Positions 8,476 through 61,980 of a stretch of 64,000 nucleotides of DNA are shown one piece after another. A program made the translations under genes and the position numbers. The notes under the pieces are model-generated. The model saw only the letters and a program-made list of their open reading frames with translations, ran no database searches and was not told the origin of the DNA. The DNA is taken from NCBI GenBank assembly GCA_944391055.1, contig CALXSF010000004.1, forward strand, positions 97,374 to 161,373, written 5' to 3'. Origin of the DNA: an uncultured Kiritimatiellota bacterium (GTDB taxonomy: Bacteria; Verrucomicrobiota; Kiritimatiellia; RFP12; DVOR01). Every line of letters starts with the position of its first letter. Within the stretch, counting starts at the first letter, position 1.

Positions 8476-10086
8476 TCACCACTCCTTCTCCGGCGCGCGG
8501 ACAAGGTCGGTGTCATGGGCCAGGCGCAGCCGCTCGGGATAATCGAGGGTGTAATGGAGGCCGCGGCTCTCATGGCGGCTCATGGCCGAGGTGATGATGA
8601 GCTCGGCCACGTCGGCGATGTTGCGCAGCTCCAACACATCGGCGGTGACAAGATAGTCGAAATAATACTCGTTGATCTCCTCGCGCAGATTGCGGACCCG
8701 GCGCAGGGCGCGGCGAAGGCGCTTGTCGGTTCGGACGATGCCCACGTAGTCCCACATGCACGTGCGCAGCTCCTGCCAGTTGTGGGCCACGAGGACGGCC
8801 TCGTCGGTGGGGACGGCATGGCCATAGACCCAGTCGGGAACGGTGACGTGCGCGACGCTCGGGACCGGCTCGGCGCAAAGCGCCTTGGCGCACTCGCACC
8901 CGCAGACAAGCGCCTCCAGCAGCGAATTGCTGGCCAGGCGGTTGGCCCCATGAAGCCCCGTGCACGCGCACTCGCCGATGGCGTAAAGGCCGGGGAGCGT
9001 GGTGCGCCCGGCGACGTCCGCGGCGATGCCGCCGCAAAGGTAATGGGCGGCCGGCACGATGGGGATGAGGTCGCGCGCCATGTCGATGCCGAACTCCAGG
9101 CACTTGGCGTAGATGGCGGGGAAACGCGTCTTGAGATACGCCTCGCCCTTGTGGCGGATGTCGAGGCAGCAATAGGCGTCACCGCGCGTCTTCATCTCGT
9201 TGTCGATGGCGCGGGCCACGATGTCGCGCGGGGCGAGGGAGCCGCGCGGGTCGTACCGCTCCATGAACGGCGTGCCGTCGCGCGTCACCAAGACGGCCCC
9301 CTCGCCGCGCACCGCCTCGCTGATGAGGAACCGCTTGGCCTTCGGATGGAAGAGACAGGTGGGGTGGAACTGCACCATCTCCATGTTGCGGATCTTCGCG
9401 CCCGCGCGCCACGCCACGGCGATGCCGTCGCCCGTGGCGATGTCGGGGTTGCAGGTGTATTGGTAGACCTTGCCGATGCCGCCGGTGGCGAGGATGACCG
9501 CGCCCGTGCGCACGGCCCAGATTTCGCCGGTCTCCGTGCTCAGCAGATAGGCGCCGACCACGCGGTTCTCGCCGCCCTCGCGCAGAAAGCGCGTGGTCAC
9601 CAAATCGATCAGCAGCGTGTTCTCGCAGACATGCAAGCCCTTGGTCGCGCGCACGCGCGCCGCGAGCGTCCGCTCCACCTCGCGCCCCGTGATGTCGCCG
9701 GCATGGAGGATCCGCCGCCGCGTGTGCCCCCCCTCGCGCGTCAGGTCATAACCCTCCGGGCAGGCCGAGCCCTCGCCCTTGGTGAACGGCACGCCCATCT
9801 CGATGAGGCGGCGGAGACAGGCGGGGCCGGCCTCGACGATGCGCCGCACCACGTCCTCATGGCACAGCCCGGCCCCCGCGTCAAGCGTGTCGGCCACGTG
9901 TAGGTCAAACGTGTCGTCCGTGCCCATCACGCACGAAATGCCGCCCTGGGCATAGGCGGTGTTCGCCTCGTCCAACGCCCGCTTCGTCACCAACAGCACG
10001 CGCCCATGCCCCGCCAGCCCCATCGCGGCCATCGACCCGGCGATGCCGCTGCCGACGACCAGGTAATCGCAGTCAATCGTTCTCAT
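8476..10086 (-). CDS. nadB: L-aspartate oxidase
   Basis: MRTIDCDYLVVGSGIAGSMAA FAD-binding N-terminus and a succinate dehydrogenase/fumarate reductase flavoprotein-like fold. 536 aa. Confidence 0.9.
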   Translation of the reverse strand: MRTIDCDYLVVGSGIAGSMAAMGLAGHGRVLLVTKRALDEANTAYAQGGISCVMGTDDTFDLHVADTLDAGAGLCHEDVVRRIVEAGPACLRRLIEMGVPFTKGEGSACPEGYDLTREGGHTRRRILHAGDITGREVERTLAARVRATKGLHVCENTLLIDLVTTRFLREGGENRVVGAYLLSTETGEIWAVRTGAVILATGGIGKVYQYTCNPDIATGDGIAVAWRAGAKIRNMEMVQFHPTCLFHPKAKRFLISEAVRGEGAVLVTRDGTPFMERYDPRGSLAPRDIVARAIDNEMKTRGDAYCCLDIRHKGEAYLKTRFPAIYAKCLEFGIDMARDLIPIVPAAHYLCGGIAADVAGRTTLPGLYAIGECACTGLHGANRLASNSLLEALVCGCECAKALCAEPVPSVAHVTVPDWVYGHAVPTDEAVLVAHNWQELRTCMWDYVGIVRTDKRLRRALRRVRNLREEINEYYFDYLVTADVLELRNIADVAELIITSAMSRHESRGLHYTLDYPERLRLAHDTDLVRAPEKEW

Positions 10087-10933
10087 GCCAACCCTCCAAA
10101 CGGACGCCGCGGCGCCTGCACGCCCAGCAGCAATAAGCGATCGTGACGAAATAGGACGCCGGCAGACGCGTCCGCGCCGCCAGCTTCACCCCCAAAAGCG
10201 TCGTTTTCCCCCCCAGCCCCATCGGCCCCACGCCCAACGTGTTCGCCTCCTCTAGCAGCCGCGCCTCCAGCGCCGCCAGCTCCGGCTCCGGCGCATGGTC
10301 CCCCAACGGCCTCAGCAGCTGACGCTTCGCCACCGCGAAACCCTCCGCCCTGTCCGCCCCCACGCAGACGCCCAGGACGCCCGGCGCGCAGCCCTGCCCC
10401 TGGATCTGCGCCACCGCGTCAAGCACGCACGCGCGCACGCCCTCCAGGTCGCGCCCCGCCCCCAGTCGCGCGTCGGGCAGACTGTACTGCCGGCTCATGT
10501 TCTCGCTGCCCCCACCCTTCAGCAACAGCCACACCTCCGGGGCCGACGCCCCCTCCCGCTCCTCGAAGTGATGGACGGGGATGCCCTCGGCCACGTTCTC
10601 GTCCACCGAGCGCCCCGACAACGCGTCAATCGTGTTCCTGCGCAGCCACCCCCGCGCCGTCGCCGCGCGCACCGCCGCGTTCGCCGCCGCGGCGAGCGGC
10701 CCCTGGCGCGTCCCCGGCGGCACCGTCCAAAAGAAGGTCAGCGTGCCCGTGTCCTGGCACATCGGCACGCTCCGCGCCTTGGCCAGCGCGCAATTCTCCA
10801 AAATCGTCCCCAGCGTCCCCCGCGCCGGCTCCGCCTCGCGCGCCTGCGCACGCGCCAACGCCTCCAACACGTCCTCCGGCGCCTCGCACGCCGTCCGCCG
10901 CACCAATTCCAACAACTGAGCCTCAATATCCAT
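10073..10933 (-). CDS. Fe-S hydro-lyase, fumarate hydratase class I / tartrate dehydratase alpha-subunit-like
   Basis: CQDTGT motif and alpha-subunit length. An ATG at 10933 is preceded by TGTTATACT, whereas the track starts at a GTG at 10951. The 3' end overlaps the nadB start by 14 nt. Confidence 0.65.
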   Translation of the reverse strand: MDIEAQLLELVRRTACEAPEDVLEALARAQAREAEPARGTLGTILENCALAKARSVPMCQDTGTLTFFWTVPPGTRQGPLAAAANAAVRAATARGWLRRNTIDALSGRSVDENVAEGIPVHHFEEREGASAPEVWLLLKGGGSENMSRQYSLPDARLGAGRDLEGVRACVLDAVAQIQGQGCAPGVLGVCVGADRAEGFAVAKRQLLRPLGDHAPEPELAALEARLLEEANTLGVGPMGLGGKTTLLGVKLAARTRLPASYFVTIAYCCWACRRRGVRLEGWHEND

Positions 10934-52914: not shown

Positions 52915-54063
52915 ATGGACACCGAAGACCTCCTCCTCCTTTCCGTGGGCGGCGCGGCGGCCGGCGTGGCGCGGCGCGTCGCCGAACGCGCCTCCGCGCC
53001 CCTGCGCGCCCTCATCCTCGACACCGACGACGCCGTCCTCCAAGCCCTCACCCCCGCCGTCGGCGTCGCCACCACCGTCTTCGGCGTCAAGCGGCTGGCC
53101 GGCCGCGGCACGGGCGGCGACCACAACCTCGGCGCCGGCGCGCTGCGCGACGACGCCGCGCAGCTCCTCGCCCAGATCGGCAGCCCACGCCTCACCGTCG
53201 TCCTCACCTGCTGCGGCGGCGGCACCTCCGGCGCGCTCCCCTTCCTGCTCGAGCTGCTCCACGCCCAAGGCGCCGCCACCGTCGTCGTCGCCACCGAGCC
53301 CTTCGCCTTCGAGGGCGAGGACCGCCAACGCTGCGCGCGCGTGCTCGCCCCCGCCATCGAGGCGCGGGCCGACGCCTTGGCGCGCGTCCCGCTCGACCTG
53401 CTTGTCGGCGAGGAGGCCTCAACCCTGCCCGCCGCGGAGGCCTTCGGCCGCGCCGCCGACCGCCTGGCCGCCGCGCTGGGGCTCCTGTGGACGCTCCTGG
53501 CCCACCCCGGCTTCATCGCCTTCGACGCCGAACGCTTCCGCCGCCTCATCGCCCAAGACCGCCGCGCTGCCCTGCCCTTCTGCTTCGCCGACGCCTCCGC
53601 GGCCGGCGAGGGCCGCGCGGAGGCCGTCCTCCGGGAGCTCCTCGCCAGCCCGCGCCTCCGCGTCGACGGCGTCGACCGCCTGGCCAACGCCGCGCAGTTC
53701 GTCGCCGGCGTCCTCGCCGGCCCGGATCTCCGCCTCTGCGAGCTGGGCGTCCTCATGGAGGGCCTCCGCGGCCACTGCAAGGTGTTGCAGGAGGATTTCC
53801 TGGGCACCGCCGACGAGGAAGGGCGCGAGGGCACGCTCGCCGCCGTCGTCCTGGCCTTCGGCGCGCCCGCCCCCGAGAGCCCCGCCGAGCCGGCCGCCGC
53901 GCGCCCCCTCGGCGCCAGGCGCGGCAAGGGCGCCAAGGCCGCCAAGGGCACCCTCCTCGGCGCCACGAAAGACCGTTTCTCCGACGTCGAGCACACCGTC
54001 TACGACGGCCAGGACCTTGATGTCCCCACCTATCAGCGCCGCGGCATCCGCCTGACCCGATGA
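52915..54063 (+). CDS. ftsZ: divergent FtsZ (tubulin-like GTPase)
   Basis: VGGAAAGV (G-box), NLGAGA, CCGGGTSGALP in place of GGGTGTG, a T7-like FIAFDAERF, and a C-terminal peptide DLDVPTYQRRG. Position directly after ftsA. Confidence 0.7.
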   Translation: MDTEDLLLLSVGGAAAGVARRVAERASAPLRALILDTDDAVLQALTPAVGVATTVFGVKRLAGRGTGGDHNLGAGALRDDAAQLLAQIGSPRLTVVLTCCGGGTSGALPFLLELLHAQGAATVVVATEPFAFEGEDRQRCARVLAPAIEARADALARVPLDLLVGEEASTLPAAEAFGRAADRLAAALGLLWTLLAHPGFIAFDAERFRRLIAQDRRAALPFCFADASAAGEGRAEAVLRELLASPRLRVDGVDRLANAAQFVAGVLAGPDLRLCELGVLMEGLRGHCKVLQEDFLGTADEEGREGTLAAVVLAFGAPAPESPAEPAAARPLGARRGKGAKAAKGTLLGATKDRFSDVEHTVYDGQDLDVPTYQRRGIRLTR

Positions 54064-56463: not shown

Positions 56464-57042
56464 TCAAACCGGCAACGCAGGCAAGGCGAATCTTCCCCTC
56501 CCCCACTCCATCAAAGCAGCGACGGAAGTATGAGAGGCGACGGGCTCGGTGGGATCCCAGATGAATTCCTTGTAGACGTTCCACGGGCTGTTGGAGAAGA
56601 GCTGCTGAACGCAGAGGTAGCCGTTGTAAAGGAACTTGGTGTAGGTGACCTGGCGGTTGCCGGCCATCTCCTTGTGGAAGACGCGCCGGCCGAGGCGGTC
56701 GTAGCCCATCGTAACGACCGTGTTCCCCTGCGTCCAGCGGATGGGGCGATTTTCGGCGTTGTATTCCACCGCCCATTCGCCCGTGTCGGTGAGCACCTTG
56801 GTCTGGTTGCCGTCGGCGTCGTATTCCGGCACGAAGGCGTCGATGGCGGTGTATTGGTTGAGCGCGTTGGCGGCGTACGCCCGCCCCTCGGCCACGGTGC
56901 GGTTGCCGATGTCGTCGTAAGCATACGTGAAGCCCTGCCCGGCGACAAACTGGTCACAGAAGTCATAGGCATAGGTCTCCGTCTTGGCAATTCCCGTGCG
57001 GCGGCCAAAACGTGGAGGCGTTGTCCGAATTGTGTATCGTAA
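56464..57042 (-). pseudogene. Rhs/YD-repeat core remnant (third, degraded copy) with no toxin tip
   Basis: YAYDDIGNRTVAEGRAYAANALNQYTAID...QGNTVVTMGYDRLGRR...KEFIWDPTEPVA is about 95% identical to the internal core of the two upstream Rhs genes, then diverges into a short unrelated tail. Confidence 0.7.
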
Positions 57043-57052
57043 CATTTGCCTC

Positions 57053-57580
57053 CTAAAGATAAGCACTATTAAAGCTAAGATTTTTCAACATCTTGACATA
57101 GGCTTCGAAGAACTCACGCAACTGGATTCGCTCATCCAAAAGTTGCTTGAGACGACGCCTCATGTTCTTAGACATTTTTACCCCATCGTTATAACATGCT
57201 ATTCTTTTTTCCACCGCAAATGGTTTTAAGAAGCCGTTTGTTACGAATGAGGCATCGCAATGTTCAGCAACATCAACGGCATTCCACAGTAGCGGGTAGA
57301 TATTGTCAAACGAGAGAGCCGGACAATATCGGGTTTTACACTGGAACGCAACACATGCGGGCTCTTTCCAGCCGCGCAAATACCAAGGTGTAAGGATGGG
57401 GCCTTTATACATTCTCTCTATTCGGAAACAATGATAATTTTCTGTGATATATAACGCATTAACCCAACAATCCAATGTATGCAACTCAACAAGAGGAGGA
57501 CTACCATCTTCGAGAGAAATGAGAGAAGACCATTTCCCCGAGAAAATAATCATTCGCGGAAATCCTAAACCCGGTTTCAT
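57053..57580 (-). CDS. Rhs-cassette small protein, paralog B of an unclassified Cys/His-motif family (candidate immunity protein for the 57582-58299 toxin tip)
   Basis: Low-GC. Start is 1 nt after the Rhs stop (TGAcATG). About 50% identical to the protein at 60241-60783, with the shared block GFPRM...LEDG...WVNAL.ITENYHCF...LTPWYLRGW..P.CVAFQCK..YCP.LSFDN.YPLLW. Confidence 0.5.
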   Translation of the reverse strand: MKPGLGFPRMIIFSGKWSSLISLEDGSPPLVELHTLDCWVNALYITENYHCFRIERMYKGPILTPWYLRGWKEPACVAFQCKTRYCPALSFDNIYPLLWNAVDVAEHCDASFVTNGFLKPFAVEKRIACYNDGVKMSKNMRRRLKQLLDERIQLREFFEAYVKMLKNLSFNSAYL

Positions 57581-57581
57581 G

Positions 57582-58299
57582 TCAATCAACACGTTTACAG
57601 TCCAAATATGTTTCGCTTGCCTCTCCGTCTTTCTCAAAGACGAGTTCTTCCACAACACGCAAAGAAGTGGAAATTTGAAATGCTTTCGCACCTGTGGAAT
57701 ATTGCAAATACCAAAGTTCATACCTTGTAAGTGTAAGTCTTGGGGAATTACCATGTATAAATGAATGTACTTGCGAAGACGTCTTCATTTCTCCACGGAT
57801 AGTCTGTCCATAGATGGGATTCAGGTTCCACGGCTGATTTTTAATCCAGTCGGGAATGTGTTTTCCAATGGCACTGTTTTGACGGATGAATTGATGGTGG
57901 ACATGTGTTCCAGGAGGGATCGAATACTGTTTACCATACCACCTCCGAGTGGCTCGCCACGTGTGGCTGCCAGTCTTCCAACACCCTTTGCCCAAGGTTG
58001 ACACCACCGATCGAAGAAGGGTTATGTCCGAAATTGCAATGCCAAGATTGAACGCACCCTGCACATAATGCCCATTGTAAAAGGCTTCATCCATGCCACG
58101 GATTGGGCCATAAACAGGAATCAACTCCTCAATCCCACTTACCGGAGGAGGCGCTGGTCTGTCCGGATCATAAAGGATGGATTCCGCCATGGCATTTGGC
58201 CCACCAAGTGTCGCCACGTCCAATCCCAAGATATCGTAAAGATAAAAACTATTCCCGCAAATCAGATAGAGGTTTCGCGAAAACTCCTCCTCCAGCGGG
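57582..58299 (-). other. Rhs C-terminal toxin domain 2 (unclassified; contains WKTGSHTWR...GTHVHHQF)
   Basis: Sequence diverges from Rhs copy 1 exactly after GRD; markedly lower GC. Confidence 0.6.
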
Positions 58300-60212
58300 T
58301 CTCTTCCGAGCCAGCGGCCATCGTTGGGGTTGTAATGGCGGTAGTTGTAGTAGACGAGGGCGAGGGCGTCGTCGTGGAACTCGGAGGAGAAGCGGAAAGG
58401 ATTGTCGGCGGCGCGGGAGCCGGTGGCGGCGACGGCGCCGAAGGGGGCGTAGTCGTAGTGGGCGACGGGCTCGTTGAAGGGGCCGACGGTGACGACGTCG
58501 GTCACGTTCTTGTTGCCGTCGTGGAGGAGGAAGGTGGCGCGTTTGGCGTTTTGGCGGAAGCAGAGGGGACGGGTCGCAACGGGCTCGGTGGGATCCCAAA
58601 TGAACTCCTTGTAGACGTTCCACGGGCTGTTGGAGAAGAGTTGCTGGACGCAGAGGTAGCCGTTGTAAAGGAACTTGGTGTAGGTGACCTGGCGGTTGCC
58701 TTCCATCTCTTTGTAGAAGACCCGCCGCCCCATGCGGTCAAAACCCATGGTGATGACTTTATTGCCCTGCGTCCAGCGGATGGGGCGGTTCTCGGCGTTG
58801 TATTCCACCGCCCATTCGCCCGTTTCCGTGAGCACCTTGGTCTGATTGCCGTCGGCGTCGTATTCCGGCTCGAAGGCGTCGATGGCGGTGTATTGGTTGA
58901 GCGCGTTGGCGGCGTACGCCCGCCCCTCGGCCACGGTGCGGTTGCCGATGTCGTCATAGGCATAGGAACGGGCGTCGGCGGAGGTCAACTGGTCGCGGAG
59001 GTCGTAGCCATACTGCTCGTCATTCTTGGAGACGCGGCGGCCGAGGAGGTCGTTGGCGTAGACATACGTGCTGAGGGCCGTCCCGTCGGGGAGGCTGTTG
59101 GTGACGGCGGTCAGCAGGTCGCGCCCCGGCTCATACGCCCATTCCGCCGTGAGGCCATTGGGATAGGTCAGCCTGGCCTTGAGGTCGGAGCCGGGCAGGT
59201 AGGCCCAGGCGAAGTTCCCGCCCTCGTTCATCGTGGCGAGGCGCCCGGTGGCGGGGTCGTAGCCCAAGGTCATCCGACGGCTGCCGCTCACGGAATAACC
59301 CGCGTCGCGCCCGTAGGCGTCGAAGTGGTGGGTGAGCGTCTTGGCGTACTCGCCCGTGATGGACTCCGTCTCCAGCTCGCCGTAGGCATTATAGCCAAAG
59401 GTGGTGGTGCCCACCGCGTCCGTCGCCTGCGCCTGACGGCCAAAGACGTCATAAACATAGCCCACCGCCGGCGTGCCGTCCGAGTACGTCTGCGACACAA
59501 GGTCGCCGTAGACATTGTAGGCGTAGGTTGTCACGTTGCCGCGCGCGTCCGTGCGCGTCGCCACCTGGCCAAGGTCGGTGAGCGTGTAGGCCACGCCATG
59601 GCCGTCGGCATACGTCTTCGAGAGCAAGGCCCCCGTGGCCTCATCGTAAGCCCACGTCGTCGAGTCGCCCTCGCCGGAAGCCTCGTCGCGGAAGGTCGTC
59701 ATGCCCACCTTCTGCCCGAACAGGTCATAATCATACACCACGGGATAGACGGCGCCACCCTCGTAGGTCTTGTTGCCGCGCACGTCGTATTCATAGACCG
59801 TCACGTTGCCAAGGGCGTTGGTGACGGCGCAGACGCGCCCCGCCTCGTCATAACCATAGGCCGTCGTCGCCCCCACGGCGTCCGTCACCGAGGCCAGGCG
59901 CCCGCGCGCGTCATACGCCCGCGCCGTCACGTTCCCGCGGCCGTCCGTCTCCGCCACCACGCGCAGATACTTGTCATAGGCCGTCGAGTTGGTCACGCAC
60001 GAAGCGCTCACCGTCTGCACCGTCACCCCATCGAGCGCCACCTCCACCGATGGGTTGCCCACCCCAGGGAAGGTCGTCGTCACCAGACCGAAGAGGGCAT
60101 TGGCGTAAGCATTGCACGAAACAACAATATCATTGCTGATATTGATCTCGCAATTGAGAAATCCTAATGTCGCTCTATAATCCCAAATATGAACTGTTCT
60201 TTGGATAAACAT
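57582..60212 (-). CDS. Rhs repeat protein, N-terminally truncated duplicate of the core, with a low-GC C-terminal toxin domain of unknown class
   Basis: YD repeats through to ...YNYRHYNPNDGRWLGRD, then a divergent 238-aa tip. The first 45 aa come from low-GC DNA. Confidence 0.8.
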   Translation of the reverse strand: MFIQRTVHIWDYRATLGFLNCEINISNDIVVSCNAYANALFGLVTTTFPGVGNPSVEVALDGVTVQTVSASCVTNSTAYDKYLRVVAETDGRGNVTARAYDARGRLASVTDAVGATTAYGYDEAGRVCAVTNALGNVTVYEYDVRGNKTYEGGAVYPVVYDYDLFGQKVGMTTFRDEASGEGDSTTWAYDEATGALLSKTYADGHGVAYTLTDLGQVATRTDARGNVTTYAYNVYGDLVSQTYSDGTPAVGYVYDVFGRQAQATDAVGTTTFGYNAYGELETESITGEYAKTLTHHFDAYGRDAGYSVSGSRRMTLGYDPATGRLATMNEGGNFAWAYLPGSDLKARLTYPNGLTAEWAYEPGRDLLTAVTNSLPDGTALSTYVYANDLLGRRVSKNDEQYGYDLRDQLTSADARSYAYDDIGNRTVAEGRAYAANALNQYTAIDAFEPEYDADGNQTKVLTETGEWAVEYNAENRPIRWTQGNKVITMGFDRMGRRVFYKEMEGNRQVTYTKFLYNGYLCVQQLFSNSPWNVYKEFIWDPTEPVATRPLCFRQNAKRATFLLHDGNKNVTDVVTVGPFNEPVAHYDYAPFGAVAATGSRAADNPFRFSSEFHDDALALVYYNYRHYNPNDGRWLGRDPLEEEFSRNLYLICGNSFYLYDILGLDVATLGGPNAMAESILYDPDRPAPPPVSGIEELIPVYGPIRGMDEAFYNGHYVQGAFNLGIAISDITLLRSVVSTLGKGCWKTGSHTWRATRRWYGKQYSIPPGTHVHHQFIRQNSAIGKHIPDWIKNQPWNLNPIYGQTIRGEMKTSSQVHSFIHGNSPRLTLTRYELWYLQYSTGAKAFQISTSLRVVEELVFEKDGEASETYLDCKRVD
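58299..60080 (-). repeat. 1.78-kb direct repeat A (Rhs core), near-identical to 61980-63761
   Basis: Long runs are identical with only scattered SNPs, for example the 59101-59160 stretch matches its counterpart near 62782-62841. Confidence 0.85.
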
Positions 60213-60240
60213 GATTAACGATTTAATTTAGTTGGGACCG

Positions 60241-60783
60241 TTACACTTGGGAGACATAGGGACTATTCATACTGTAATTTCTCACTATCTCAATATAATG
60301 AACGAAAAATTCTCGCAATGGTATCCGATTTTCAACCAACCCTTTGAGTTTTTTCTTCATTCGCTGCGACATCGGCCCACCATCCCCAAATCGGGCAATC
60401 CGAGATGTCGTTGTGAACTCGCCCAATTGATAAGCATTACATAGACTAATCGACACACATGACGCAATGTCAATAGCCCTCCATAAAAGAGGATAAACGT
60501 TATCAAACGAAAGCTGTGGACAATAACATGCCTTGCAGTGAAATGCCACACATGAAGGTTGGCACCAACCACGCAAATACCACGGTGTAAGATTTCTCCC
60601 TTTTTCCATCTTGATTATCTTGAAGCAATGATAGTTCTCTGTGATAAGCAACGCATTGACCCAATGTTTAAGCGTCGACACTGCAATCTGTGGCATTGCC
60701 CCATCTTCTAGCGTAACAACAGAGGCGAATGCCCCAGGGAAAACAACCATTCGCGGAAAACCAAACAGTGGTCTCATAATCAC
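60241..60783 (-). CDS. Rhs-cassette small protein, paralog A of the same Cys/His-motif family (possibly an orphan immunity gene)
   Basis: Low-GC; about 50% identical to 57053-57580. Confidence 0.5.
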   Translation of the reverse strand: MIMRPLFGFPRMVVFPGAFASVVTLEDGAMPQIAVSTLKHWVNALLITENYHCFKIIKMEKGRNLTPWYLRGWCQPSCVAFHCKACYCPQLSFDNVYPLLWRAIDIASCVSISLCNAYQLGEFTTTSRIARFGDGGPMSQRMKKKLKGLVENRIPLREFFVHYIEIVRNYSMNSPYVSQV

Positions 60784-60792
60784 TCCAAGCGT

Positions 60793-61404
60793 TTACAAAT
60801 TAGATAATTGATAACGCTCTTCAACTAAAATTGTTTTGAAGAATGTCCGTTTTGAAAAATGGTAACAAATCCGCCAAAGGCCCTCTTGAAAAAATGTTAC
60901 ATCTTGGGAAAATCGCACCTCCATCCCTGGCTCCAACAAGAAAATTGGTGCAACGCAAGAAACATTCCCTACTCTAACAAAAGGTTCCTTTAGAACCTCT
61001 GTTCGCAAAAAATGAATGTTGTAAAAGCCATGAAACCCAACCACTCCATCCGTCGCATAGATTCCTGCTTCGTTAAAACATCCCTCAGCATTCTCATCAA
61101 GTAAAGCCCAGCGTTTCTCTGTTACATTGTATTTCTCCACCGTAATCTCAACCGGAAGGGACGCGACATCAACAGAAACCCTGTTCTCATTTGAAAGAAT
61201 GACCCACACTGTAATTGGTTGACCGCACGAAACAATGCAAGACTTTTGACTAAAGCGACCTTGTAACAACAAATCATCAGCGGGAAAATCAATTTGCACG
61301 ATTCCCTCATCTATGTCTAAACTCGACAAACAAGAGAATTGTGACAACGCCATTATAAAAAGCCCACTTACCAATACATTTCTGAATAGACGTTCTCTTC
61401 CCAT
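60793..61404 (-). CDS. Rhs-cassette small protein with a signal-peptide/lipoprotein-like N-terminus (candidate immunity protein for the HExxH toxin tip)
   Basis: Low-GC; overlaps the Rhs stop. N-terminus LVSGLFIMALSQFSCLSS. Confidence 0.45.
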   Translation of the reverse strand: MGRERLFRNVLVSGLFIMALSQFSCLSSLDIDEGIVQIDFPADDLLLQGRFSQKSCIVSCGQPITVWVILSNENRVSVDVASLPVEITVEKYNVTEKRWALLDENAEGCFNEAGIYATDGVVGFHGFYNIHFLRTEVLKEPFVRVGNVSCVAPIFLLEPGMEVRFSQDVTFFQEGLWRICYHFSKRTFFKTILVEERYQLSNL

Positions 61405-61980
61405 TCCTGTTCACTCCCCATATTTTGTCCATGATTCGTTTCTTCGTCAAAAGTCAAATTCCGCTCATTTTGTCGGTCCCAAGCTGTTTTTCTCAACTCA
61501 TCTCGTTCTGTTTGCAACGATTTCAAGGCCTTGGCTTTTGCGCCGTCATATGTCGTTGCGCAAACACTTACCATAGGAAGCGAAGAACGCTTGTACGCAT
61601 TTAAATAGATGTTAATATGAGTTCTCTCATGTGCAAGTATCTGCCAAGACTGTTTGGCTTCTTCTGTCGCCCAACTTTTGTCTTCCAAAAAGTAAAAAAT
61701 CCATTTGGCCCGAGTAGCAATAGCCTGAACACAAATACAATCTGTATCACTGGAAACGATTGAGAAATCAATATCCGCCTCATTTATACTCATGTATGGT
61801 TGTGCCAAAACAGTTTCTGCCACACGGCCGTTTCGCGTTTCATACGATGGGATTGTTCCTTGAAAATCAGCCCACGTTATCTCTGATGCATACTCAAACT
61901 TTTTAAGTCCACGTCGATCATATTGCGAAAGGGGAGAATTATCAACGAACGAATAAAGATTGTCAGAATAATCTTCAACG
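61368..61980 (-). other. Rhs C-terminal toxin domain 1 (HExxH zinc-metallopeptidase-like)
   Basis: AHERTH motif; low GC. Confidence 0.6.

Follow-up and report, generated by a model that had tools for sequence, protein, structure and literature searches.

What role do two related small genes play in an Rhs array, and why does one of them stand behind a toxin tip to which it does not seem to belong? This question is raised by the 3' end of an Rhs locus in a 64,000-nucleotide stretch (the window) of contig CALXSF010000004.1, from an uncultured Kiritimatiellota bacterium. The two genes, here termed paralogs A and B, accompany two Rhs genes, Rhs1 and an orphan fragment, Rhs2, which end in unrelated variable tips (tip 1 and tip 2). 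An initial interpretation made from the letters and open reading frames (ORFs) of the window, hereafter the sequence-only reading, had assigned B to tip 2 as its candidate immunity gene and had regarded A, behind the tip 1 cassette, as an orphan one. The explanation that we consider probable for the locus as a whole is an Rhs polymorphic-toxin array in which tip 2 and B form a pair and A is the orphaned partner of a second tip allele, tip 2', found in sibling strains.

Two intact paralogs of an uncatalogued family

Both genes are intact and clearly paralogous, aligning without gaps over 175 residues at 53% identity and 71% similarity (E-value (E) 1e-72), in agreement with the roughly 50% identity first estimated. 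B starts 1 nt past the Rhs stop, as had been noted, with its ATG at 57580 and the Rhs2 stop codon at 57582-57584. Among the sequence blocks said to be invariant, ITENYHCF, TPWYLRGW and YCP.LSFDN.YPLLW occur in both proteins, but the block given as CVAFQCK reads CVAFHCK in A. The A reading frame is unbroken in all six contigs, and the codon changes between B and its copy in L023 number 48 synonymous to 24 non-synonymous, a balance that points to purifying selection on B. Both proteins are basic (isoelectric points of 9.3 for A and 8.9 for B).

The sequence-only reading did not recognise this family, and searches of Pfam, NCBIfam and PDB sequences gave no match to A or B; catalogued immunity families (Pfam Imm*, SUKH, SuFu, DUF1963 and CdiI, and those of NCBIfam) likewise gave zero matches to A/B at E up to 1. 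A word-indexed search for relatives returned three clusters, and HMMER, run exhaustively with a profile over 1.84 billion representatives, returned 8 real clusters (at 50% identity) and one spurious one, P0015, a low-complexity repeat protein that was rejected as a family member. The AlphaFold2 (AF2) model of B is of high quality (predicted local distance difference test (pLDDT) score 89.9, predicted template modelling score 0.85). PDB 2L6O (Shewanella amazonensis YP_926445.1), which has been assigned to Pfam PF13642 (PMC6726615), shares 11% identity with no match at the sequence level and gives no functional lead to the paralogs.

Family members adjoin tip-2-type toxins

To place the family, DNA context was read around its clusters and around close relatives of the toxin. 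In about ten independent lineages (window/L015/L025, L002-L004, L001/L023, L007, L008, L022, L013, L014, L024 and L026), a family member begins right where a tip-2-type toxin stops or overlaps that stop codon, so that the co-occurrence suggested by the sequence-only reading is found well beyond the window. The specific pairing of tip 2 with B is repeated in L001, L023 and L025. Among named genomes, only a Candidatus Spyradenecus metagenome-assembled genome (MAG) of the Lentisphaerota (L022) contains a family member. A family spread widely outside toxin loci would have argued against an immunity role; this is not the distribution seen, since only one of the 8 real clusters, P0011, lies away from any Rhs. 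All exceptions to adjacency are orphan-like, namely A in the window, the second copy in L024, and P0011.

The locus in L024 (9325-10471) consists of an Rhs gene with a tip-2-like toxin, two tandem family members that are 60% identical, and an Rhs remnant; by their arrangement, the tandem copies appear to be a cognate and orphan pair. P0011 (L009-L012, ~10001-10555) is a solitary gene of 42% G+C within a 53% G+C region, flanked in four MAG contigs by a resistance-nodulation-division (RND) efflux operon on one side and membrane-protein genes on the other. No Rhs or toxin gene was found near P0011 in these four contigs, a point against the association, and P0011 may be an acquired stand-alone immunity gene.

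The toxin C-terminus and the downstream gene vary together

In three samples (L002-L004), an Rhs gene ends in tip 2', and 10 nt further on lies a gene that is 98-99% identical to A. At the DNA level (L002), tip 2 and tip 2' show 100% identity between 58296 and ~57817 and only 50-70% from there to the end of the immunity gene, with a sharp nucleotide breakpoint at ~57800. In protein terms, the N-terminal ~140 residues of the two tips are 100% identical and the last ~69 residues are 54% identical, next to 53% for A versus B. Across seven toxin-immunity pairs, immunity identity is correlated with the identity of the toxin C-terminal part at r = 0.90 (22 of 5040 permutations in a Mantel test) and of the N-terminal part at r = 0.63; with seven pairs only, two close ones of which dominate, these statistics are supporting evidence rather than proof, and to that extent tell against relying on them. 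By sequence comparison, the unit of exchange is the last ~69 toxin codons together with the downstream gene.

The same part of the toxin also differs in length. The spacing between N130 and H150 is 19 residues in all toxins paired with A/B-type proteins, versus a median of 9 elsewhere in the toxin superfamily, and the added hairpin (residues 137-144) is the place where tip 2 and tip 2' start to differ. It appears from these comparisons that toxin and antidote have matched insertions next to the putative active site. Adjacency in about ten lineages, combined with the co-variation of the toxin C-terminal module, upholds B as the candidate cognate immunity protein of tip 2, and the immunity reading of A and B is, as judged from sequence data, well supported.

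Tip replacement left A without its toxin

The recJ-adjacent locus has at least three forms among strains. The first (L002 type) reads Rhs, tip 2', A and orphan fragment; the second (L016-L018) reads Rhs, tip 1, the gene for a 203-residue protein, A and remnant; and the third (the window and L015) reads Rhs, tip 1, the 203-residue protein gene, A, orphan Rhs2, tip 2, B and remnant. The orphan Rhs2 is missing from L016-L018, where A runs straight to the remnant. When the window is compared with the L002 type, similarity stops at the core/tip boundary (61980) and restarts at 60786, right after the toxin stop; tip 1 and the 203-residue protein gene therefore fill exactly the place of tip 2', with A left toxinless. 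The proposal that A is an orphan immunity gene is thereby borne out in a specific form, with its toxin allele, tip 2', present in sibling strains: A appears to be an orphan whose cognate tip 2' is not in this genome and has been replaced by tip 1 and the 203-residue protein gene.

Across A and its low-G+C tail, positions 60786-60086 of the window correspond to 3507-4208 of L002 at 97.9% identity, beyond which the restart of the Rhs core differs in L002. A low-G+C tail after A is common to the window (60086-60212) and L002 (4053-4340), and the core restarts at the equivalent of 60084 in the window versus ~59012 in L002. These different restart depths suggest that the orphan fragments were truncated independently.

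Tip 2 belongs to a large toxin superfamily

The sequence-only reading had found no assignable catalytic motif in tip 2, and only a conspicuous His cluster, GTHVHHQF. The cluster is present, but the claim about the motif does not hold, as its His residues supply the invariant HH in an xHH...N...H(x3)H pattern that runs through the whole family. A profile search with tip 2 recovered at least 320 homologous clusters, many of them annotated only as 'RHS repeat-associated protein' and some with dockerin or RHS domains; the scaffolds of the superfamily are Rhs, dockerin-linked and stand-alone. No superfamily cluster carries a Pfam domain in its toxin part, and tip 2 itself matches nothing in Pfam, NCBIfam or PDB sequences. 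By these searches the superfamily is both uncatalogued and large.

In 120 aligned sequences, H106, H107 and H150 are invariant, N126, Q127, P128, W129, N130 and G155 exceed 90% (N126 and N130 being present in 119/120), and H154 occurs in 103/120. The residue ahead of HH is V, G, M, I, L, F or A, and the consensus spacing is HH-18-N-3-N-9-H-3-H followed by G. There is also a conserved helical N-terminal half of ~75 residues with P33, G36, A60, D63, K80, W86, T89 and R90. The AF2 model of tip 2 (pLDDT 85) has a helical N-terminal part and a β-β-α core, in which HVHH is predicted on strand 104-107, N130 just ahead of strand 131-134, and H150-H154 on helix 146-153.

The order HH...N...H (H-x3-H) expected of HNH/EndoVII nucleases is thus present in tip 2, and the pattern matches the descriptor of Tox-AHH, '[AG]HH, N, H, H' (PMC3482391), a hint of an HNH-like nuclease. 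Several results weigh against this assignment, and none of the statistical comparisons made backs it. Pfam searches with tip 2, with 11 relatives, with the consensus and with 8 xHH variants returned no HNH-clade match; AHH matches only 1/120 members, at E 0.054; hhalign of the toxin profile against colicin E9 (a sequence entered by hand) gives a probability of 0.1%; and their basic character sets A and B apart from the acidic, DNA-mimicking immunity proteins that accompany many DNases. Profile searches of PDB with the toxin were empty, and no PDB fold match was obtained. The case of Tox-REHH demonstrates that an Rhs-borne divergent HNH DNase can escape global fold comparison (bioRxiv 10.64898/2026.09.22.753552); we regard it as an analogue of tip 2 and not as a demonstrated relative. 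On balance, we consider the chances that tip 2 is a metal-dependent HNH/His-Me-type nuclease to be about even.

Downstream genes of the toxin superfamily

A metagenome scan with the toxin core yielded 80 loci (L025-L104), and in 79 of these an ORF of at least 50 residues starts no more than 200 nt from the toxin stop, mostly overlapping or abutting it. The 79 ORFs comprise 2 of the A/B type, 58 of one ~150-residue family, 6 DUF1963, 1 SUFU, a two-member cluster and nine singletons. The main ~150-residue family has zero Pfam or NCBIfam matches; its consensus includes …FPVL…L.T…lllvDSdG…V..A…GpfwG…ikVeL…, and its N-terminal half was considered as a CBS domain and rejected because the match to PDB 2yzq (E 0.93) is not significant. 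Partners of other superfamily members include a DUF805 membrane protein (L005 1770-2192) and SUFU or DUF1963 proteins (L043, L059/L078). This variety indicates that one toxin family is served by multiple unrelated partner families. SUFU is a recognised immunity superfamily, and SuFu immunity domains mostly serve nucleases (PMC3482391).

The A/B and main families are not joined by BLAST or HMMER, and only remote homology links them, although genes of both begin at the toxin stop. Alignment of the A/B profile with a 56-sequence profile of the main family by hhalign gave a probability of 89.7% (E 1.9e-6) over 129 columns spanning both, with a score of 41.2 versus no more than 15.6 in 21 controls (1 reversed and 20 column-shuffled); the A/B profile against a single downstream protein, that of L006, was insignificant (probability 1.3%). 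From the profile comparison, the A/B family looks like a divergent branch of the main family with an extra ~25-30 residues.

Proposed mechanism and alternative explanations

We propose that A and B act as cytoplasmic immunity proteins, B being the small gene that always starts at the stop codon of a tip 2-bearing Rhs. Each protein would recognise its own toxin allele by binding the variable module at the C-terminus, which is made up of the inserted hairpin, the helix with the His residues and the C-terminal helices beside the active site; B would thus shield the cell from tip 2, and A would shield it from neighbours armed with tip 2'. More tentatively, the nuclease site would comprise H106/H107, where β1 ends, N126/N130, which precede β2, and H150/H154 in the helix that follows. 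A fuller version of this model is possible, though we hold it with rather less than even confidence: tip 2 would represent an undescribed, divergent HNH-like toxin superfamily with a dedicated, also undescribed immunity superfamily, in which the 10-residue hairpin and the ~25-30-residue immunity insert co-evolved, inhibition follows a new mode, by a basic protein that does not mimic DNA, and specificity resides in the last ~69 toxin residues.

The activity of tip 2 is the part of this scheme with the strongest competitor, in which the pairing is right and the His/Asn cluster belongs to a metallo-hydrolase or a His-dependent transferase with a cytoplasmic target. The failure of HNH families, colicin E9 and PDB folds to match, the basic and not DNA-mimicking immunity proteins, and the conserved helical N-terminal half, which has no counterpart in a minimal HNH domain, are all in keeping with a different enzyme. 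The order and spacing of xHH-N-N-H-H-G on a predicted strand-strand-helix are nevertheless the arrangement of HNH/EndoVII toxins, and one superfamily member is paired with a SUFU protein, a domain that mostly serves nucleases (PMC3482391). The downstream proteins, moreover, have no signal peptides, which places the target of the toxin in the cytoplasm, so that we regard a non-nuclease tip 2 as rather unlikely. A different doubt concerns the orphan status of A, which at 53% identity might cross-protect against tip 2 and make A and B redundant. An antidote binding within the first ~141 residues, which are identical in tip 2 and tip 2', would indeed serve both toxins, but most of the divergence falls within the C-terminal module of the toxin and within the antidote, each tracking the other as expected of a recognition surface, and L016-L018 keep A with neither tip 2 nor B; cross-protection is accordingly judged improbable.

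Still less likely are two alternatives that would give the paralogs another role or another functional core. The sequence-only reading had seen a potential metal-binding site in the spacing H-C...C-x4-C-x4-C, and on this view A and B would be Cys/His metal-binding proteins. H50, C51, C76, C81 and C86 are all kept in A, B, L024b and L026, and the proteins are rich in cysteine (8 in A and 7 in B); family-wide, however, C86 alone is invariant. P0011 has Ala in place of H50, P0013 has Val in place of C51 and P0001 has Ser in place of C81; P0009-P0013 and L024a lack C76/C81. In the model of B, residues 76-85 form one continuous β-strand (pLDDT 83-96) with C76, C81 and C86 along it or at its end, and cysteines placed 5 and 10 residues apart on a single predicted strand should not be able to share one metal ion. 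The proposed site is thus supported neither by the family alignment nor by the model, and a metal-binding core seems very unlikely. Finally, A and B could be accessory factors (chaperone, adaptor or stabiliser) for folding or loading of the tip, rather than antidotes. Accessory genes do adjoin Rhs effectors in other systems (PMC4524185), and A and B are basic and have no recognised fold. Known Rhs accessory genes, however, lie upstream or near the N-terminal loading region and not at the tip stop; A stays intact in strains without its toxin; L024 has two tandem copies after one toxin and P0011 is solitary; and the same slot is filled by SUFU or DUF1963 proteins in other superfamily members. 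Orphan and tandem copies fit immunity and not a chaperone, and we give an accessory role hardly any credence.

Organization of the array

The region forms the 3' end of an array of Rhs polymorphic toxins in an uncultured bacterium of high G+C content (Table 1). All genes across the array are on the minus strand, in the transcription order Rhs1 (tip 1), 203-residue protein gene, A, orphan Rhs2 (tip 2), B, Rhs core remnant and recJ, with host genes (recJ, dtd and a division cluster) past the remnant. G+C content is ~42% in the tips and small genes, ~65% in the Rhs cores and ~75% in the host genes. Three hallmarks of Rhs loci are present, namely YD repeats, a core boundary with a variable tip, and a small downstream gene that varies with the tip.

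Table 1. Features of the Rhs array and their positions in the window
Feature	Position	Strand	Basis or remark
Rhs1, C-terminal ~880 codons	61368..64000	-	RHS_repeat (PF05593) E 3e-29; gene extends past window end
Tip 1	~61368-61979	-	HExxH string (AHERTH); weak DUF922 match, E 0.22
203-residue protein gene	60793..61404	-	ORF overlapping Rhs1 end; candidate tip 1 immunity
Paralog A	60241..60783 from GTG; 178 residues from ATG at 60777	-	Orphan immunity candidate
Low-G+C tail of cassette A	60086..60240	-	G+C profile; L002 alignment
Orphan Rhs2 fragment, 876 residues	57582..60212	-	RHS_repeat (PF05593) E 2e-29; Rhs_assc_core (TIGR03696) E 8.6e-11
Tip 2 toxin domain, 210 residues past ...DILGLDV boundary	57582..58214	-	At least 320 homologous clusters
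Tip 2 variable, putative specificity module, residues ~142-210	57582..57791	-	Differs from tip 2' in step with the immunity gene
Paralog B, 175 residues	57053..57580	-	Candidate cognate immunity protein for tip 2
Rhs core remnant, 200 residues, tipless	56464..57066	-	RHS_repeat E 3.8e-5; last part of the array, beside recJ

Rhs1 is open upstream to the window end without a stop and is hence not a short gene; its complete length in sibling contigs L015/L016 is 2004-2074 residues. Rhs2 is a copy of the Rhs core that lacks the N-terminal ~1200 residues and has tip 2 at its end, its TIGR03696 match covering the residues directly ahead of the tip. The gap between A and the Rhs2 ORF is 29 nt, and the tail of cassette A provides the ATG of that ORF and its first ~43 non-Rhs codons. 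The database form of A is the 178-residue protein. Similarity between the cores of Rhs1, Rhs2 and L002 ends at a ...RWLGRD...GL boundary (61980 / ~58215), and TEN_YD-shell is listed for the L015 counterparts of Rhs1 and Rhs2. A similar Rhs remnant follows the immunity gene in L001, L022, L023 and L024.

The full-length Rhs protein of L016 (18500-20002, minus strand) has the N-terminus MNVLGLLGAGIALAGAVWVG…, which is hydrophobic and signal- or anchor-like, and no domain was recognised in the ~500 residues after this segment; nor was a PAAR domain seen. The small amount of upstream sequence read showed neither PAAR nor VgrG context. The division cluster contains ddl, an ftsQ-like gene, ftsA and, as its last gene (52915-54063), one for a 382-residue tubulin/FtsZ-family protein whose long C-terminal half is rich in Ala, Pro and Arg; next come a gene for an 82-residue lipoprotein-like protein, dtd and recJ.

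The cassette that replaced tip 2' can be characterised in part. The 203-residue protein has an isoelectric point of 5.0 and a hydrophobic, lipoprotein-like N-terminus (…LSQFSC), with no Pfam or NCBIfam family match, and its gene and tip 1 are kept together in L015-L018. This protein is a candidate immunity protein for tip 1, and the combination suggests that tip 1 is a periplasm-acting metallopeptidase-type toxin with an exported immunity partner.

Comparison with known systems and significance

Rhs arrays with displaced orphan C-terminal modules have been described in Enterobacteria (Poole et al. 2011, PMC3150448; Koskiniemi et al. 2014, PMC3967940), and orphan Rhs immunity genes in Serratia (PMC10539506). 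The present locus shares with them a conserved core, a polymorphic tip, a small gene at the toxin stop, downstream orphan modules of core fragment, tip and immunity gene, low-G+C cassettes in a higher-G+C host, and toxinless immunity genes. It differs in that the host is uncultured and of high G+C content, a relative of the pair occurs in Lentisphaerota, no type VI secretion system context was seen, and the old tip was deleted and not displaced, with only its immunity gene left. Moreover, neither this toxin family nor this immunity family is among the described ones.

Among described toxins, the Tox-AHH/xHH clades (Zhang et al. 2012, PMC3482391; PF14412 and relatives) resemble tip 2 in having a small residue followed by HH, N, H and H, in residing on Rhs and other polymorphic-toxin scaffolds and, for some relatives, in having SuFu immunity partners. 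Unlike Tox-AHH, the tip 2 superfamily has its ~75-residue helical N-terminal half, the tip-2 subclade has a 10-residue hairpin between β2 and the helix, and the profile match is not significant. Tox-REHH, as in the Rehh-RehhI pair (Long et al. 2026, bioRxiv 10.64898/2026.09.22.753552), is similarly Rhs-borne without Pfam or global fold similarity; its His-rich pocket is a deeply divergent HNH site, and its partners come from several unrelated immunity families. It should be noted that Tox-REHH and tip 2 were compared by published residues and description and not by sequence. The conserved R46, H52, E53, H102 and H121 of Rehh differ in order and spacing from R90, H106, H107, N126/N130, H150 and H154 of tip 2, and the conserved HE pair of Tox-REHH (STox_30) is not found in the tip 2 superfamily, where position 104 is H, P, E or Q. 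The Rehh immunity proteins (Imm22, SUKH, CdiI-like and Imm24) mimic DNA and are acidic, in contrast to the basic A and B. Colicin E-type DNase/Im pairs also have the HH...N...H(x3)H order, related alleles each with a cognate member of one immunity family, and specificity in a small variable surface, but sequence similarity to them is undetectable, and Im proteins are acidic four-helix proteins of ~85 residues, unlike the basic α/β proteins of 175-178 residues seen here.

The architecture of Rhs tip, immunity gene and orphan modules is textbook and points to no biology of a new kind; the value of the locus is practical. Two uncatalogued families, the toxin superfamily of at least 320 clusters and the main immunity family, could join the polymorphic-toxin catalogue. 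Tip 2 and tip 2' also constitute a natural specificity experiment, in that the toxins differ only in their last ~69 residues and have distinct antidotes that are 53% identical, so that the recognition surface could be mapped with few chimeras. Lastly, the locus appears to document strain-level replacement of a toxin tip that left an orphan antidote behind, in a little-studied lineage of the Planctomycetes-Verrucomicrobia-Chlamydiae (PVC) group.

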